64,000 nucleotides of DNA from a virus (IMGVR_UViG_3300005676_000004), one strand, 5' to 3'; positions 1-51,397 are shown, counted from the first letter of the stretch. Translations and numbers: made by a program. The notes: generated from the sequence alone by a model not told the origin.

Positions 1-150
1 TTAATTACGATCTATAACGGAGCTACATTTAACAATGTAGTAATTAATGCTAGTACATGGGGTCTTGACGTCGGAGGAAACTTCACAATCTCCCCTGGCC
101 AAGGCAAGACGCTCTGGTACAGTGGTGCGAATTGGGTGATTATTAACTAA
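1..150 (+). CDS. C-terminal end of a probable virion fibre/structural protein (partial)
   Basis: Frame 1 is open to TAA at 148-150: ...FTISPGQGKTLWYSGANWVIIN*, a beta-rich ending typical of fibre proteins. Confidence 0.5.
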   Translation, partial: LITIYNGATFNNVVINASTWGLDVGGNFTISPGQGKTLWYSGANWVIIN

Positions 151-246
151 TCATCGTTGATAGTTTGTAACCAAGTGGGGTAGTTGATTGTTATACAACA
201 GTTAACTACCCTTGTTCTTTTAGGGGTGGTAATAGTACCACTAGCA

Positions 247-254
247 TATTTATA
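247..254 (+). promoter_or_regulatory. Putative late-promoter motif TATTTATA
   Basis: Same TATTTAT(A) motif lies upstream of the genes at 4840, 10776(-), 44781(-) and 45407. Confidence 0.55.
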
Positions 255-345
255 GTATGTACCGAGCTTACATGCTTGGTACACTTTTAAGTTTTGTAAA
301 ATCATTTACAGTAGTTCTACGGATAGTTTCCAAGGAGTTTGTCGT

Positions 346-3300
346 ATGTACAATACATTTTTCAAGAATATCTTATTAGCGTTATCAGTGTTGGTTGGGA
401 TAACAACCGCAGATGCGCAGACGTATCGGCGTATAGACCTCACGGAAGGTCGTCGGTATATGGTGGCATTCCCCAAGGTATGGGCTAGCAACACTGAGCT
501 GCCACTTCCTCAGCCTATGCAGTTGCTTATTTCATCCAAGGTACGAGCGAAGGTACGGATATTCACGCCCGCTGTTATCAATGACGCTGGTGGAATTGAT
601 CGCGAAATAATCGTAGAACCTAATAAGACAGCAAAAGTTCCAGTCTCTATATCGTATCTCCCGCAACCGGATGAGTCTGAGCGTCGTTTAGGATATGGTA
701 TCCAAGTAACTAGTGATAAACCAATATCAGTTACTACCTACCAAGCGTGGATGGGTAACGGAGAATATGCAAGACACCTTCCAGTTGCATCTTGGGGTAA
801 GACATATTATTCAATGAACTTCTATCAAGATCGTTACGGTACTGGTTCTCCATATAAAGAACGTCCTAGTCAAATCATTGTCATCGCTGATAAAGACAAT
901 ACAGTAGTAACGTATACACCAACCGTTGGTACACAAGGTGGTATAGATGCACCAGCGACTCCAAAGAATTCATCAAGGACAGTAACACTACAGCGTGGTG
1001 AAATCTTCGTCATTAATGACAAAATTATTTCATCACAGATAAAAGAATTTACCACTGACTTGTCGGGTACATACATCCGAGCGTCTAAACCAATTGGCAT
1101 TGTCACGGGACACACTAAAGTAGCAATTATGAGGTATCCCGACGTATTACCTCCTACTGGTGGTTTTATGACGGAAGCACATTTCGTGCGTAATAACGTT
1201 CATGATGCTCAGATACCAAACGAGATGGCAGGGACGCGTTTTGTTACTGTACCAGTGATGTATACTGACAGCCGTGTTACTGGTATAGGTGCACAACAAT
1301 TTGGCATAGATGATGACCGTGGAGATGTGGTTCGTATTGTTGCAACTGAAGATGATACACGTATTACCGCACAACGAACTGATGGTAGCGGTATGAAGCC
1401 AGTTGCTCTTCTTCGTAAGAAGGGGGATTCGTATTTAGAGGTGTCCTTAGAGACGGCAACCTATTGGGAAGCTGACAAGCCAGTTCTCATAGGACAATAT
1501 GGTAAATCATATGCAAAGATAATACCTCCCGTCTTTGGCGTCGAGGATCGTAAGAAAACGATTTGGGATGTTCCGCAAGGACACCCAACAGTTGAGGCTG
1601 GTATGCCAATGTTACAATATATACCGCCTATCAACAGATGGGTTACCTACGGTGCATTCAATTCACCAGATCAGATGGATAACTTCTTTAACATTGTCTT
1701 TAACACTGGCGATCAGACTCGAATCAAATTTGATGGTCGTTTTATCGGAAGCATCTTTGGTGGGGCAATTAAACAGTTAGCAGGAACTCCGTACTCTTTC
1801 ATACGAGCTAGGATTCCGTCTGGAGATCATACTGTAGAATCTTCCGATGAATCTGTTAAATGGTCAGCATGGAATTATGGTTCGTTTGATGGCTTGCAAC
1901 AAGGCAGAGCGTATGGTACACCCATAGCAATTGATTTAGCACTGCCATGCGACGATACCATCCTCGTTGAAATTGATTCAACATGTGGTGACTGGAATGG
2001 TACAGTACGAATACAGTCAACTACTCCTGGATGTGCAAGTCTATTTGATATATTTTTAGATGATGAAGTTAATGCTACGTTGGCGTACAATGAAGATACA
2101 CAACCAACCCCACAAGGCGTTAGCGTTCCATTCGTAATTACAGTCGTTGACAAGACAAAGGCAGCATCAGGAACGTTATACGTGACCTCTAGGTCAGGCC
2201 TTCAATACAGCATACCATTTGAATATAAGCCAAATGCAATCTCTATAATTCCAGAGTTAATTGACTTTGGAGTAGTAGCGAAGGATCAACAAGTATGTAA
2301 GTCGTTGTTCATAACAAACAATGGTAATAAAGAGTTTTACATATCATCTATTCGCGCAAAGTCAAGTCCACAACTCATCAGTATAACCCCAAATCAAGTT
2401 CGTATACAACCAGATCAAACTGTAGAGTTTCAAGTATGTATAACCGGAACATTTAATGGGTCAGTTGTTGACACTGCGGTAATCTCGTATGCGGCATTCA
2501 TTGAAGATCAATTCTGTTATGAAGTGTCTCCAATTGAAATTCGAGCGCGTGTTGATGAGCCAGACTTCTTTGCGGGAGATCAAGATTGGGGTATAATTGG
2601 AAAGAACCAACGTGCTACGAAGACAATAACTCTCTTGAATGCTGGTAATGCTGACGTGGAAGTTTATGACTACAATCCAAAGTTGTCTGGGCCTAACTTC
2701 TCAAATCTCGTCGTTAACCTACCACTGCGGATAGCTAAGGGTGAGCGCGTCATCCTAAATGTAGACTATACTCCAAACGGAGAAGTTGGCGTAACGCACA
2801 CTCAACGAATTGATTGGGTAACAAATGCTACAAAAACAAAACTGTACTCAGACTTAAAAGGTCAAGGTGCTGACGCTGCACTTGAGATTACAAATTTAAC
2901 GTGGCTTGAGCGCGTCATAGATCAATGGCAGCGTGATCAAGGTATTAATGAATACGTAGATACGATATTCATCTCCAACGTTGGCTTGCGGAAGGCACTA
3001 ATTTCATCAATTACCATAGAAGGTCAAGACGCATCAAATTTCAGGATTGTTGATCAGTCGGGTGTTATAATGAACTCTGACGGTGGTATATCTAACATGC
3101 CGCTACTAGTTTCTTTTATACCTACAGAAATTCCTAATACTAGAGATGCAGAACGTTCATACAGAGCCAACGTTGTGATCAACTATAGTGTTGATGGTGA
3201 CGCTGCAACTGTTACGGGTGAGCTTAGCGGTACGGCTACACAACCTAGGCCATCTGCTACTGGATATAACTTCGGTACGATTTCAGTTAACGGTGTTGGT

Positions 3301-4749
3301 GCTGGAAATGTATTTATCTATAACGTTGACTCGGTGTTAACGAATGTGTTAACAAACAATGCCGACGGTACTATGGACATGCAACTGTTTGAGTTGACTA
3401 TTCCCGACAATACACCGTTTGTATGGGCTAGGTCTAACAGCAAAGTTCTCACGTATACACCACCAATAAATGTCCGCCCTGGTGACGCGTACTATGCCAT
3501 GGAAGGTGTGCGTTTTGAACCTACTACTGTTGGATCGTTTACTACACAATATGATATAAAGTACAATGGTCATGTAGTTGTACGTCCAACGTTGACAGGT
3601 GTGGCTGAGCAAACTATTCAGTTATCAGTTACAAACCTCCATCTTCTACAATGGATCAATCATTCTGTTGACGGTTTCTTTGAAGCATCATTGACTGCGG
3701 ATGGTGTAATTTCGGTAGATGATCCGTCGTCTGGTGACGCATTGAACTTCTCAATAGTCGGGTGGTCTACCGATGGTGGTACAACCATTAATCCTAACTA
3801 CCAGCAAATTCAATTGTCGGCGAACCAAGTGGCTAGAATTTATGTCCGATTTACACCTTCAATGGTAACGTCAGCAGGACTTAAAGCTGGCCAGTCCTTA
3901 AATGGAAGGCTTCCATATCGAGATGCAACATTTATGACGTCAGTTAAAGTACGTGAGCTACAATCTGGATTAACGGCGGATGCAGCAATCACAGGCGACG
4001 GAAAGTATCTTGAGACAACAGTGTACATTCCGGACTACACTAACGTAGGACTTGGTAAAGAGCATGTTGTCTACACATACTTACGTCCTACGCCGGAGCC
4101 AGTGGCAGAAGGTAAAATTCGTCAATTCAGAGCACGTCTATCATTTGATAATCGGATGCTGTATCCGTTGGGGGTTGTTCAACAAGGAACACAAACTGAT
4201 GGATGGCGAGTTGTATCGTACACTGTAATCGGTGGTAATATGATAGAGCTTGATATGAAGAGCGACAATCCAGTGAATGTTCTCGTGGATAATCCAGTAC
4301 CAATTTTTGGTATCAAATATCAGACGCTTATGGCACGTTCAACGTCAACGCCGCTTCCGATCCAATTGTATTGGGTCGACCTTGAGCAAAAGTTTGATGA
4401 GGATAGATTGTATACCGTCTTCAACTACGAGCCAGGAAGTATTAATGTCTTGACTCCATGTACCGGAACTATGCGTCTAGTCAACATGTTCTCCACGACG
4501 TCATATATACGAGTTCCAAATCCAGTAGTAGACGACAACATCTTAACGGTTAATTATGGAGTTCCAGTACCTTCAACCGTGTCCATGACGTTAACTTCAT
4601 ATGATGGTAAGCAAGTTTCACTTGTCAACGGCAAGCAATCAAATGGAGAGTATTCCTTAGAGTATGACATGAATACTCTTCCAACGGGAGTATACTTCGT
4701 ACGCTATAGTCACCTTCCAGATAACGTCATCCAGATCATAAAGCGATAA
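346..4749 (+). CDS. Secreted IgGFc-binding-domain / Ig-like repeat protein with T9SS type-A C-terminal sorting domain
   Basis: Signal peptide (..LVGITTADA-Q); IgGFc-binding-like N-terminus (GIQVTSDKPISV, LPVASWGKTYY); several ASH/choice-of-anchor-D-like Ig repeats (IDFG..ITNNG, DWG..LLNAGN); cohesin-like block; CTD-like end (VPNP..VNY..LTSYDGKQV..LPTGVYFVRY). Confidence 0.85.
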   Translation: MYNTFFKNILLALSVLVGITTADAQTYRRIDLTEGRRYMVAFPKVWASNTELPLPQPMQLLISSKVRAKVRIFTPAVINDAGGIDREIIVEPNKTAKVPVSISYLPQPDESERRLGYGIQVTSDKPISVTTYQAWMGNGEYARHLPVASWGKTYYSMNFYQDRYGTGSPYKERPSQIIVIADKDNTVVTYTPTVGTQGGIDAPATPKNSSRTVTLQRGEIFVINDKIISSQIKEFTTDLSGTYIRASKPIGIVTGHTKVAIMRYPDVLPPTGGFMTEAHFVRNNVHDAQIPNEMAGTRFVTVPVMYTDSRVTGIGAQQFGIDDDRGDVVRIVATEDDTRITAQRTDGSGMKPVALLRKKGDSYLEVSLETATYWEADKPVLIGQYGKSYAKIIPPVFGVEDRKKTIWDVPQGHPTVEAGMPMLQYIPPINRWVTYGAFNSPDQMDNFFNIVFNTGDQTRIKFDGRFIGSIFGGAIKQLAGTPYSFIRARIPSGDHTVESSDESVKWSAWNYGSFDGLQQGRAYGTPIAIDLALPCDDTILVEIDSTCGDWNGTVRIQSTTPGCASLFDIFLDDEVNATLAYNEDTQPTPQGVSVPFVITVVDKTKAASGTLYVTSRSGLQYSIPFEYKPNAISIIPELIDFGVVAKDQQVCKSLFITNNGNKEFYISSIRAKSSPQLISITPNQVRIQPDQTVEFQVCITGTFNGSVVDTAVISYAAFIEDQFCYEVSPIEIRARVDEPDFFAGDQDWGIIGKNQRATKTITLLNAGNADVEVYDYNPKLSGPNFSNLVVNLPLRIAKGERVILNVDYTPNGEVGVTHTQRIDWVTNATKTKLYSDLKGQGADAALEITNLTWLERVIDQWQRDQGINEYVDTIFISNVGLRKALISSITIEGQDASNFRIVDQSGVIMNSDGGISNMPLLVSFIPTEIPNTRDAERSYRANVVINYSVDGDAATVTGELSGTATQPRPSATGYNFGTISVNGVGAGNVFIYNVDSVLTNVLTNNADGTMDMQLFELTIPDNTPFVWARSNSKVLTYTPPINVRPGDAYYAMEGVRFEPTTVGSFTTQYDIKYNGHVVVRPTLTGVAEQTIQLSVTNLHLLQWINHSVDGFFEASLTADGVISVDDPSSGDALNFSIVGWSTDGGTTINPNYQQIQLSANQVARIYVRFTPSMVTSAGLKAGQSLNGRLPYRDATFMTSVKVRELQSGLTADAAITGDGKYLETTVYIPDYTNVGLGKEHVVYTYLRPTPEPVAEGKIRQFRARLSFDNRMLYPLGVVQQGTQTDGWRVVSYTVIGGNMIELDMKSDNPVNVLVDNPVPIFGIKYQTLMARSTSTPLPIQLYWVDLEQKFDEDRLYTVFNYEPGSINVLTPCTGTMRLVNMFSTTSYIRVPNPVVDDNILTVNYGVPVPSTVSMTLTSYDGKQVSLVNGKQSNGEYSLEYDMNTLPTGVYFVRYSHLPDNVIQIIKR

Positions 4750-45175: not shown

Positions 45176-45406
45176 AGAGAGACAAGCGAAGACGGCAGGA
45201 CTATTGTGAAATTTTGTTCACAGAAGGATGAAGAGCTAGGATGAAGCTATGAATTTTTTTGATCAGTTCTTGGTTTCTCGTGTTTGCGGTAGAGACAGCT
45301 TTGGATTTTTTCTGTGATACTGCTAAACAGCTTTGTGCTTTCTTGGCCTGTAGGATGAAACCATTTTAATAAAGTGGGGGTTTTTAGGAATTTTAGGAAT
45401 ATTTTT

Positions 45407-46228
45407 ATGGAAGATTCAATAAAAAACACAACAAAAAGTTCAAGTACTGGGGGCCGGCCCGCACTTGAATTAACAGAAAAACTTATAAGATATGCAATGG
45501 CAAACACTTGGAGTAACACGGAAGCAGCAAAGTTTCTTGGTGTGAACTACAAGACGTATAGATGGTATGCTAAGCTGTATCGAGAACCGGATGGCAGGAC
45601 ACTGTTTGAAGTACATAAAAAAGTTTCTTTTGATCCGGAGCGGATGAGGAACATCAGAAAGAAAAAAAGTGATAAATCTTATTCTTGTAACAAAGGTTAT
45701 AAAGAAAAGCTCGAAGACATTCTTGCAGGGAAACACCAGGGATATTCACCAAGGAAGTTACGTAAAAGAATTTTACTGTCTGGGTGGATTGAACCAATCT
45801 GTGCAAACTGTGCATGGAATGAATCGAGAGTGACGGATGGAAATTATCCGTTGCTCATCAATTTTAAGGATACAAATTGGAGAAACTGTCACCAAGACAA
45901 CATCGAGCTGTTGTGCTTTAACTGTTATTTTCTGTTGGTGCGGTCACCGTCACGTTCATTCCAGGGATGGAGCTATGGTAAGTTCAGGAAGCAAGTACGT
46001 GCTGATGGGAAACCAAAAGGTTATGGTTCACGGAGATGGAATAAAGAGCACGGGGTCACTGAGAGTTACCGCGTACGTCGGTATAAGCAGCTTCTGGAGC
46101 TGAATGAGGAATACCGAATTAAGTACGGTGAGGACGCGGTGATAAAGGATATTCGAGTACCGTGGGAAATCAGTGGGTATCCAGAAGGTAAAGAGAAGGA
46201 TACCAATGTTGATGGTACGCCGATATAA
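45407..46228 (+). CDS. HTH plus degenerate HNH-like zinc-finger protein
   Basis: SNTEAAKFLGVNYKTYRWY (HTH-like); CANC..LLINFKDTN..NIELLCFNCY (HNH scaffold lacking the first His). Confidence 0.65.
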   Translation: MEDSIKNTTKSSSTGGRPALELTEKLIRYAMANTWSNTEAAKFLGVNYKTYRWYAKLYREPDGRTLFEVHKKVSFDPERMRNIRKKKSDKSYSCNKGYKEKLEDILAGKHQGYSPRKLRKRILLSGWIEPICANCAWNESRVTDGNYPLLINFKDTNWRNCHQDNIELLCFNCYFLLVRSPSRSFQGWSYGKFRKQVRADGKPKGYGSRRWNKEHGVTESYRVRRYKQLLELNEEYRIKYGEDAVIKDIRVPWEISGYPEGKEKDTNVDGTPI

Positions 46229-46230
46229 TA

Positions 46231-46266
46231 AAAAACGGTAAGGCTACAGGTTACCCTACCGTTTTT
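46231..46266. terminator. Bidirectional intrinsic terminator-like hairpin
   Basis: AAAAACGGTA...TACCGTTTTT between convergent units. Confidence 0.65.
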
Positions 46267-46325
46267 CGGAGAAGATAACTGATGGATGTACCAGTTACCA
46301 ATACTAATTGCCAAATTTATAGAAA

Positions 46326-46341
46326 TGTTCCACGTGAAACA
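46326..46341. other. parS: parS centromere-like site (perfect chromosomal consensus)
   Basis: TGTTCCACGTGAAACA matches TGTTNCACGTGAAACA; intergenic. Confidence 0.85.
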
Positions 46342-46354
46342 TTTTTAGTTTCCC

Positions 46355-46520
46355 GATGAAGGGGGCAAACTACACTAGGCGGATGAGTTTCTGTTTTACT
46401 ACTGTATAGGTGTTACCCTATATTCCGCCTAGTGCTTGCTTGCCGTTTTGCCGATCATCAAGCGAGAGGTCAACAGGAGGATATAAGCGAACTCTCTCGT
46501 TCAATAACCGTTCAATGACC
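46355..46520 (-). ncRNA. Candidate structured non-coding RNA
   Basis: ORF-free; own promoter at 46527-46558; two predicted stem domains, including the 11-bp perfect CACTAGGCGGA/TCCGCCTAGTG stem. Confidence 0.5.
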
Positions 46521-46526
46521 ATGTAA

Positions 46527-46558
46527 CAAATATACGGAGTTCCTACGAGAAATCCAAA
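46527..46558 (-). promoter_or_regulatory. FCB-type promoter TTTG-N20-TATATTTG
   Basis: Matches the Bacteroidota -33/-7 consensus. Confidence 0.7.
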
Positions 46559-46572
46559 TTAATTTTTGTTCA

Positions 46573-48039
46573 TTAACAGCTACCGTCAAACTTATCATCA
46601 AAGAGCCAGTCTAAAATAGTGTCCTCTATGATGTTTTTATTCCAAAAATCGTTTAGAGTGAAGAAAACATCACGTTCAGCATCTTCAAATCGTTTGCCCA
46701 TACAGCCTACAACTACACTCGTGTAGTCTGCAATCAAAGAGTCAAGTTCGCTCTCGTACATATCAATAAATTCTTTTCGTACTGCCTCGCGATACTTGTT
46801 TATAATATCAAAGGTTAGTGTATGATACCTCATACCGCCATCTTCATCTTTTTTAGGATAGATTAACTTCGGTATGAACCAACTTGGGATACCAAGAACC
46901 ATAGACTTGTTCTCATGAAACAGCGGATATTCATGGCCATCAAGCATGATGGATGCGGGAAGATCAATAGCTACCTCAAAGTTTTCAGAGCTTGATCGAA
47001 ACCTAGACAGTTGACCATTGAACTGTTCGCTATATCTATGCAAAAACTCCTGCCATGTTGGGAGATTGAGGTGTCCGTTTCTGTCAGTGCTGTAAAAGAG
47101 TAAATCATCAATTTGTTTATCAAGTGGCGTAAAGTCATTAAACTCTTTTATGTATCCATAGAATATATCTCGGAATGACGGTGGAAACCCTTGGGTACCG
47201 AAAACAAACTCCGTCTCAGCGGCGGTTACTGGAACTATAGGCATCAAGCAGGAATAACCTATAACACCTTGAACGCTTGGTATACGCATGTAATTCGGCA
47301 GGACGCGGTATCCTTTACCAAAGATACTATCGTTGACAAAGTCACTTTTAAATGCACTACGCCTCTTAAACTCGTATGCTATCTCTAGTGCAATATCACC
47401 CATCCAACCGTCTGTTGTTTCTACGGTTGATTCTTTCAACATCGTATAACCATACAATGCCTTAACAGACTTCAGTATACGATCTAAAGAATTATAGTAA
47501 CCACGACCATACTCGTTATAAATAGTTGACCCACCAATCGCACCCAACGTACACTCAATTCTCAGTATGGTAGTGTAAATAAACTCAAGTCTACTAAGAT
47601 GTAAAAATTTACTAGCTACCCGAGAGATTTGTTGTACGTCATCAACTGAGAATACAAACTCTGTTGTGTGAGGTATGGATAGCTCAATACGACGTACATC
47701 CAGCTCTTTGATCTGCCTTCTAACGAACTTACGGTTGGATGAGTCCTTTGTTAGTAGGACGTCACCGTGCTCATCAGTTGCATAGGCATCTGCAAGACTA
47801 TCCATTATTGAATAGAATGAAGGTGCAGGGGGTGAGTCCAATACCTCAAAATATTCATGGAAAAGGTGATCTTCATCAAGTGTTGTAAAGAGTTCATCAA
47901 TCCTCGTAGAAGATATGAACGTATGCAACTTTTCACGGCGTGGATACCGTGTGATGTCATCTGCACTGAACGGTGGTAGTGCTACTGTTGATTTATTCTG
48001 ATAGAAGTCAGAAGGCAGTCCTGGGTGAAATCGTTTCAT
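46573..48039 (-). CDS. Large hypothetical protein (488 aa)
   Basis: Long uninterrupted ORF; no motif recognised. Confidence 0.75.
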   Translation of the reverse strand: MKRFHPGLPSDFYQNKSTVALPPFSADDITRYPRREKLHTFISSTRIDELFTTLDEDHLFHEYFEVLDSPPAPSFYSIMDSLADAYATDEHGDVLLTKDSSNRKFVRRQIKELDVRRIELSIPHTTEFVFSVDDVQQISRVASKFLHLSRLEFIYTTILRIECTLGAIGGSTIYNEYGRGYYNSLDRILKSVKALYGYTMLKESTVETTDGWMGDIALEIAYEFKRRSAFKSDFVNDSIFGKGYRVLPNYMRIPSVQGVIGYSCLMPIVPVTAAETEFVFGTQGFPPSFRDIFYGYIKEFNDFTPLDKQIDDLLFYSTDRNGHLNLPTWQEFLHRYSEQFNGQLSRFRSSSENFEVAIDLPASIMLDGHEYPLFHENKSMVLGIPSWFIPKLIYPKKDEDGGMRYHTLTFDIINKYREAVRKEFIDMYESELDSLIADYTSVVVGCMGKRFEDAERDVFFTLNDFWNKNIIEDTILDWLFDDKFDGSC

Positions 48040-51312: not shown

Positions 51313-51397
51313 GTAGTGTACGAAATTACTTCCACTCTACCAAATGAATTTTTGTTCATTCACTATTTGGAATTTACGTCACCTATACTTATATTAG
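51313..51397. promoter_or_regulatory. Back-to-back divergent promoters with a central TGAA-N6-TTCA palindrome
   Basis: - strand TTTG(51341-44)-N20-TACAC; + strand TTTG(51366-69)-N20-TATATTAG; TGAATTTTTGTTCA at 51345-51358. Confidence 0.6.

Follow-up and report, generated by a model that had tools for sequence, protein, structure and literature searches.

Genomic context of the locus

The locus lies in a window of 64,000 nt, the whole stretch of DNA analysed, which is the minus strand of positions 125316-189315 in a 253,401-bp IMG/VR virus record rated complete. Positions below are those of the window unless they are given as genome positions. The phage genome has a G+C content of 41% and contains a T4-type major capsid gene (Pfam Gp23), whose product is 70% identical to that of Microcystis phage Mel-JY01, 54% identical to those of the Flavobacterium 'immuto' phages and 57-79% identical to those of many uncultured contigs. 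A gene for ribosomal protein bS21 is carried on the minus strand (genome 42700-42861), and window 346-4749 encodes a protein of 1467 aa that has a sorting domain for type-9 secretion. The phage fits the bS21-encoding freshwater jumbo phages, for which the predicted hosts are Bacteroidota (PMC9723584). Near-identical contigs exist, namely an 82-kb contig at 99% and 12 sister contigs with an identical neighbour protein.

A crude gene call gives a coding density of 93%, with 7.4% of the genome intergenic. At this density the gene-free gap of 344 nt at 46229-46572, which separates two convergent genes, is unusual. The gap and its borders contain the following features:

46573-48039, minus strand: 488-aa orphan gene, upstream of the unit and co-oriented with it (gene call)
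46559-46572, minus strand: imperfect palindrome resembling an operator (TGAAC-A5-TTAA), immediately next to the -33 box, centre at about -43.5
51345-51358, 46559-46572 and about 45207-45220, same strand: the three operator copies (motif scan)
46527-46558, minus strand: Bacteroidota sigma-A-type promoter, exact match (TTTG, 20-nt spacer, TATATTTG)
46558-46555, minus strand: -33 box TTTG, exact match
46534-46527, minus strand: -7 box TATATTTG, exact match
46522, minus strand: predicted transcription start, an A (position rule for the -7 box, PMC9723704, and sequence)
46418-46522, minus strand: 34-codon ATG frame, candidate leaderless micro-ORF (ORF listing)
46448-46515, minus strand: domain 1, a long hairpin with an irregular stem and an apical loop of 12 nt (-22.4 kcal/mol, z -2.5)
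46364-46444, minus strand: domain 2, in which stems of 7 bp and 12 bp enclose 21 unpaired nt and an inner hairpin of 6 bp (-32.4 kcal/mol, z -6.5)
46352-46363, minus strand: CCC/GGG hairpin of 3 bp that separates domain 2 from parS, present in minimum-energy folds, weak alone
46326-46341: host-type parS 16-mer, no mismatch to the consensus, with A/T-tract flanks that extend the palindrome
46274-46299, minus strand: 10-bp hairpin between parS and the terminator (fold), followed by a pyrimidine-rich single-stranded tail
46230-46267, minus strand: intrinsic terminator, 15-bp stem and U-run (-20.1 kcal/mol, z -5.3)
45407-46228, plus strand: convergent gene for a 273-aa helix-turn-helix and degenerate HNH-like protein (PHROG HNH matches)

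The 488-aa protein has no Pfam or PHROG match, and its sole relatives among 5.8 billion proteins are the members of its own 90% cluster. The gene was not found in 12 long related phage records, and synteny through this orphan neighbour was a dead end. No terminator separates the 488-aa gene from the RNA unit, and the RNA is therefore probably the 3' UTR of this gene as well.

The terminator at 46267-46230 is common to the RNA unit and the convergent HNH-like gene. The HNH-like protein has an N-terminal helix-turn-helix and belongs to a family of 35 clusters, 40-59% identical, in T4-like phages of Bacteroidota. In the motifs that hold the two His residues of active HNH nucleases, all aligned members carry Phe and Tyr, and they retain both pairs of Cys. 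At 22 viral loci of the family, in Mel-JY01 and in Flavobacterium phages, the gene is followed neither by the RNA nor by parS. The equivalent convergent junction of Mel-JY01 measures only 51 nt, and in most uncultured relatives co-oriented genes come after the HNH-like gene.

Promoter, operator-like palindrome and predicted transcription start

Sigma-A-type promoters of Bacteroidota were defined by a -33 TTTG and a -7 TAnnTTTG at a spacing of about 19-21 nt. The sequence at 46558-46527 on the minus strand matches this definition exactly with a spacer of 20 nt, and the consensus promoter TTTG-N20-TATATTTG proposed in a preliminary description of the locus is thus present. The full pattern occurs 16 times in the 253 kb, compared to 4-11 times for scrambled patterns, and 4 of the 16 matches are intergenic in a genome where intergenic DNA makes up 7.4%. 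Within the window alone the pattern is not enriched (2 matches found, 1.37 expected). From the genome counts, the chance of finding a perfect promoter in a 344-nt gap is about 0.004-0.011 per strand. On the plus strand, no sigma-A-type promoter with at least 9 of 10 matches is found between 46200 and 46620.

The palindrome at 46572-46559 begins right after the stop codon of the 488-aa gene. The motif TGAAC-A4-5-TT[C/A]A has exactly three copies in the 253 kb, all of them intergenic, on one strand and within 6.2 kb. The sites at 46572 and 51358 agree at 20 of 21 positions, including TTTGG, and the same palindrome-TTTGG-N19-TATATTTG layout is found at a promoter at genome 227171, 49 nt ahead of a gene. 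A related contig (L240) carries the same 20-mer and a perfect -7 box before a homologue of the gene at window 51471, so that the operator-promoter layout appears to drive a homologous early gene there. Class-II activators of the CRP/FNR type bind near position -43.5. Since the palindrome is centred near this position, the promoter is probably regulated. The third operator copy lies upstream of the 273-aa HNH-like gene, which makes the helix-turn-helix/HNH-like protein a candidate binder of the three copies.

In Flavobacterium the -7 box spans positions -12 to -5 (PMC9723704), and this rule places the start of the transcript at A46522.

Predicted fold of the minus-strand RNA

Read along the minus strand, the palindrome is followed by TTTG, the spacer, TATATTTG and about 292 nt of folded RNA that includes the 15-bp terminator stem. 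This agrees with the leftward RNA of about 290 nt, ending at a terminator and reading through parS, that had been put forward from the sequence: the terminator lies at 46267-46230 and parS (46326-46341) falls within the promoter-to-terminator stretch.

The 297-nt minus strand folds at -103.9 kcal/mol, compared to -67.8 +/- 4.6 kcal/mol for dinucleotide shuffles (z -7.8), and none of 200 shuffles was as good. The plus strand of the same 297 nt reaches -79.9 kcal/mol (z -2.1). To place these values in the genome, 1688 overlapping windows of 297 nt were folded on both strands, giving 3376 folds. Only 2 of them are as stable as the element, which ranks second with a GC-corrected z of -3.97. The sole better GC-corrected fold is found at window 19-315 on the plus strand, upstream of the 1467-aa gene (-100.3 kcal/mol, z -4.04). 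Between its two strands the whole stretch differs by about 25 kcal/mol, which corresponds to only about 2 SD of the genome-wide spread.

Strand specificity was also compared module by module, and all four modules are more stable on the minus strand. Domain 1 folds at -22.4 kcal/mol on the minus strand vs -14.6 kcal/mol on the plus strand (z -0.7), domain 2 at -32.4 vs -27.7 kcal/mol (z -3.8), and the module formed by parS and the fourth hairpin (46269-46364) at -22.0 kcal/mol (z -3.0) vs -15.5 kcal/mol (z -0.6). The terminator reaches -11.9 kcal/mol (z -1.8) on the plus strand; it may act in both directions, the minus-strand form being much stronger. The minus-strand advantage arises from G-U pairs, which are mismatched in the DNA and in plus-strand RNA. 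This bias is the best single-sequence argument for selection on the minus-strand RNA, and it is not overwhelming. Domain 2 is largely a palindrome at the DNA level.

The apical loop of domain 1 comprises residues 46486-46475, and the CCUCCU hexamer occupies 46480-46475. In the ensemble the hexamer is unpaired with a probability of 0.99-1.0, and its assignment to the domain 1 loop in the preliminary description holds. The stem proposed there fares less well. An 11-nt direct repeat at the 5' side of domain 1 provides two alternative 5' arms, and in the minimum-energy fold the 3' arm pairs with the second copy of the repeat. The hairpin itself stands, and the pairing proposed for it, through the first copy, was rejected as 6 kcal/mol weaker (-16.2 vs -22.4 kcal/mol). 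Four of the ten outer pairs of domain 1 are G-U pairs. Domain 2 is found with its inner hairpin, as described, at 46444-46364. Further downstream, the parS palindrome forms a 9-bp hairpin in the predicted RNA. The simplest reading of the sequence is a discrete minus-strand RNA, folded strongly and in a strand-specific manner, that runs from promoter to terminator through parS.

Search for relatives of the RNA

No match to Rfam 15 was obtained at gathering thresholds over the 64-kb window. When the region 46150-46650 was searched at E values up to 10, only five chance-level matches of at most 15 bits appeared. The element thus belongs to no Rfam 15 family, including 6S, Y RNA-like, ROOL/GOLLD and HEARO RNAs and the ribozymes. 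A tRNA/tmRNA scan was negative, and BLAST against public phage records gave no match.

A covariance model built on 46350-46522 recovers its own source at 220 bits. It gave no hit in 48 phage records that are related to this phage or bear parS, made up of 40 capsid-related viral records, Mel-JY01, a Flavobacterium phage, three further records, the record of L240 and two parS-bearing T4-like records. It was equally negative at 19 HNH-like family loci, searched without filters, and in 151 genomes of Bacteroidota. Compared by BLAST with 401 Bacteroidota genomes, the 344 nt matched at the parS core and its flanks only. Capture of the RNA from a host was rejected on this ground, parS alone matching these genomes. 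Two exact-pattern metagenome scans, covering both arms of domain 2 and the domain 1 loop, were empty, and the genome itself holds no paralogue of the RNA. These homologue searches covered records other than the near-identical contigs. Relatives with a 70-79% identical capsid protein are without the element. As far as these searches reach, the RNA element is lineage-specific and so far known only from this phage lineage. Because the records searched hold no homologue, neither covariation nor a sign of purifying selection is available.

The exposed loop and ribosome-binding sites

The CCUCCU loop displays a motif complementary to the Shine-Dalgarno (SD) core in single-stranded form, and the preliminary description had proposed that the RNA represses messages by pairing with their ribosome-binding sites. 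Phage genes do use SD-type sites: a core of at least 4 nt precedes 48% of phage starts vs 12% of control ATGs, and one of at least 5 nt precedes 24% vs 2%. This SD-rich phage, which has its own bS21, contrasts with the SD-blind phylum predicted as its host.

The repressor itself finds no support beyond the hexamer. When the loop is paired with 339 phage start regions, its duplexes have the same mean and minimum energies as those formed by shuffled loops, and no phage target rises above the shuffled level. The 5' end and three other single-stranded segments did no better than shuffles on the same 339 regions, and extended complementarity to the loop is limited in the phage to chance-level 9-10-mers. 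We estimate the chance of finding CCUCCU in a loop at a few per cent. An RBS-masking role of the RNA is a guess, and the hexamer serves as a lead only.

Two broader roles had been suggested for such a repressor. Of thirteen 20-kb bins, twelve show SD use of about 40-70% and the last shows 26%, with early-looking regions no different from structural ones. Given this uniformity along the genome, an anti-SD RNA could not separate early from late genes, and a switch from early to late expression is unlikely. The same holds for a general shut-off of the host, since SD sites are largely missing from Bacteroidota hosts, whose ribosomes keep the anti-SD hidden beneath bS21, bS18 and bS6 (PMC7797042). 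The few SD-led host genes, S21 and S18, would be the sole obvious host targets.

The remaining proposal, a 6S-like polymerase decoy, meets the Rfam result at E values up to 10 and the shape of the fold. The element resembles 6S RNA in its length of a few hundred nucleotides, its high degree of structure and the early phage expression proposed for it. It differs in forming several hairpins (four to five separate domains in the minimum-energy and centroid folds), where 6S RNA is a single rod with a large central bubble that imitates an open promoter.

A proposed structured RNA gene acting in trans

We consider it most plausible, with a probability of roughly 0.4, that the unit is a real, orphan, early gene for a structured non-coding RNA of about 292 nt, which is also the 3' UTR of the upstream gene, carries parS in its 3' half and would pair in trans through its exposed pyrimidine loops. 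The specific anti-SD mechanism is rated well below this figure.

The predicted promoter and terminator, the fold with its strand specificity and the exposure of the loop are results of the sequence analysis; we infer the transcript, and each step of its action, as follows. Host RNA polymerase with sigma-A would initiate at about A46522 from the operator-flanked promoter. The transcript would fold during synthesis into domain 1, domain 2, the parS hairpin and the fourth hairpin, and the strong terminator (46267-46230) would bring transcription to an end. Transcripts reading through from the 488-aa gene would share this 3' end, so that the unit is comparable to small RNAs of the 3'-UTR type that are made from an internal promoter of their own. 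The most likely mode of action of the RNA would be pairing in trans by means of its permanently single-stranded pyrimidine stretches, chiefly the CCUCCU apical loop. It would target purine-rich ribosome-binding sites, either on phage messages or on those few host messages of this phylum that possess them (S21, S18). On this account parS would be a DNA element that happens to sit inside the transcribed stretch.

Comparators for such a gene are the 3'-UTR-type small RNAs with an internal promoter, such as DapZ and MicL of enterobacteria, and the independent small RNAs Rfp18 and GibS of Flavobacterium and Bacteroides (PMC9723704, PMC7366714). Like them, the phage unit has a sigma-A promoter where a coding region ends, a folded transcript poor in ORFs, an intrinsic terminator that is shared, and loops that are candidate seed regions. 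It has no homology to them; at about 290 nt the predicted RNA is longer and more folded than most, it is borne by a phage, and it contains parS.

The C-rich-loop small RNAs RNAIII and RsaE of Staphylococcus mask Shine-Dalgarno sites. The phage RNA is similar in presenting a C/U-rich hexamer complementary to the SD core in an apical loop. Unlike them, it has one such loop instead of several, no motif conserved across relatives and no target enrichment, and the phylum of its host barely uses SD sites (PMC7797042).

Two adjacent stem-loops also characterize the put RNAs of phage HK022, where they lie right after the promoter and ahead of the terminator. The arrangement just past the phage promoter, before its terminator, is alike. 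However, the domains here are much larger and only the antisense of the convergent gene lies past the terminator.

If real, the element would be a phage small RNA, a kind already known, and of moderate interest. It would add an early structured RNA made by the host polymerase to the bS21-encoding freshwater jumbo phages of Bacteroidota, a group known from metagenomes only. The genes of this group carry SD sites while the ribosomes of the host phylum hide the anti-SD, and an RNA that displays an anti-SD would offer a concrete handle on this puzzle. The case rests on one sequence without relatives, and its present value would be that of a well-defined candidate RNA.

The parS site and a possible role in cis

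The parS 16-mer is unique in the 253-kb genome. It conforms to the chromosomal-type consensus, and the likeness extends to the flanks: of the 401 Bacteroidota genomes, 50 carry chromosomal parS sites that match both core and flanks, at as many as 24 of 24 positions. The phage encodes no ParB_N domain and no ParA-type ATPase domain, and host ParB presumably binds the phage site. Elsewhere in the genome, parS-like repeats at 59.6-61 kb were rejected as a collagen-like coding repeat that matches 18 of 20 parS positions by chance. They fall in a long collagen-like gene with Gly-Ser/Thr-rich repeats at genome 59.6-61.1 kb.

At least 119 IMG/VR contigs contain the parS 20-mer, and apart from it none has anything in common with the element. 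Fifteen long parS-bearing records, two of them T4-like, include complete terminal-repeat genomes, and none of the fifteen has a ParB_N domain above the Pfam cut-off. Host-type parS without a phage ParB thus looks widespread (IMG/VR loci L004-L122; records G447-G461).

This site raises an alternative to the trans-acting RNA gene, namely that the unit acts in cis around parS, its transcription priming or activating replication or gating the loading of host ParB, and that the RNA serves as a means rather than as the product. We regard this as doubtful. The perfect and unique host-type site, flanks included, in a phage without ParB or ParA suggests such a role, as does the operator at the promoter. 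The absence of the cassette from relatives is what would be expected of an acquired module. In this phage the promoter lies 181 nt ahead of parS. Three other Bacteroidota jumbo-phage contigs show a promoter-to-parS arrangement at a similar distance: in L023 (247 kb) and in the near-identical pair L063 and L049, parS lies 150-185 nt behind a sigma-A-type promoter in ORF-free DNA. Both L063 and L049 have a T4-type capsid gene and no ParB_N.

The force of this parallel is limited by the contigs themselves. Promoters occur every few hundred bases in L023 and L063, so the one upstream of parS may be there by chance. The spacers of the three contigs are homologous to one another, not to that of this phage, and they are only modestly folded (z -2.1 and -2.3). 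Sigma-A-type promoters are very dense at L023:3700-4700 and L063:400-1300, and a AGAGTAGACTCC motif adjoins the parS unit there.

Analogues for RNA priming would be ColE1 RNA II, the R-loop origins of T4 and the RNA-based origins beside parABS in mycobacteriophages. The T4 origins concerned are oriF and oriG. The phage unit resembles these systems in having a promoter-driven non-coding RNA directly beside a partition site in an integrase-less phage. Unlike them, the phage is without parA and parB of its own and carries just one parS, of host type, and a terminator closes the unit. The antisense copy-control RNA of ColE1-type and phage RNA origins has no predicted counterpart here, the stretch 46200-46620 having no antisense promoter from which to make it. 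The unit also has no AT-rich unwinding stretch, and the terminator, a strong one, stands 60 nt beyond parS. GC skew tracks gene orientation and was rejected as an origin signal, since it mirrors that orientation.

Further encouragement for a role in cis comes from the biology of comparable phages. Integrases are missing from phages of this type, for which pseudolysogeny has been suggested (PMC9723584). Extrachromosomal mycobacteriophage prophages have RNA-based replication origins beside parABS, and their replication requires this non-coding RNA (PMC7157519). Acting in cis, the unit and parS would together make up a compact cassette that maintains the phage as an episome, in pseudolysogeny. 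In its fullest form this becomes a proposal that we think improbable: the 344-bp cassette would be a minimal plasmid-like maintenance module, in which an operator-controlled origin, RNA-primed or activated by transcription, is joined to a host-type parS, letting an integrase-less T4-like jumbo phage persist as an episome in pseudolysogeny, partitioned by host ParAB and loading SMC. Were it true, the promoter-to-parS units of other ParB-less Bacteroidota jumbo phages would represent a recurrent strategy. More generally, a host-type parS within a promoter-to-terminator unit of a ParB-less phage raises the prospect that lytic-looking jumbo phages may borrow the host segregation machinery.

Possible absence of a dedicated function and the 34-codon frame

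Another alternative is that the gap has no dedicated function. It would then be a 3' UTR with a terminator shared by convergent genes, an acquired parS, a fortuitous promoter and palindromes that happen to fold. We hold this to be unlikely. It would account for the lack of conservation in anything searched and for the upstream 488-aa gene having no terminator of its own ahead of the unit. The fold can be attributed in part to DNA-level symmetry, domain 2 being almost as palindromic on the plus strand (z -3.8), and the promoter pattern is not enriched in the window (2 vs 1.37 expected). However, too much would have to coincide: a perfect promoter with a recurring operator, a fold among the top two of the genome, a minus-strand bias in all four modules and a terminator optimised for the minus strand. 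Intergenic DNA is also scarce in this genome (7.4%), and Mel-JY01 has just 51 nt at the equivalent junction.

The unit had been described as lacking any credible ORF. This stands insofar as no frame has a ribosome-binding site, and it needs amending for the 34-codon ATG frame at 46522-46418, since A46522, the predicted +1, is also the A of its AUG. The frame overlaps domain 1 and half of domain 2. That this RNA serves as a leaderless message encoding a protein of 34 residues, with a structured 3' UTR as its remainder, is very improbable: the -12 to -5 rule does set the start on the A of the AUG, the frame stays open through its 34 codons, the first 7-12 nt are unpaired when the 173-nt 5' part is folded, and leaderless messages have a precedent in about 5.5% of the mRNAs of a Flavobacterium (PMC9723704), but the frame crosses the two most stable hairpins, its length is unremarkable (by estimate about 20% of random frames are open that long), and in the analogous L023 unit, which also starts with AUG, the frame ends after 6 codons.

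The structured RNA gene favoured above may not be the only non-coding unit of this genome. A second gene-free gap, of 721 nt, at genome 245979-246699 contains a perfect sigma-A-type promoter (246514-246483, minus strand) whose next same-strand gene is 927 nt away, and it represents a further candidate.
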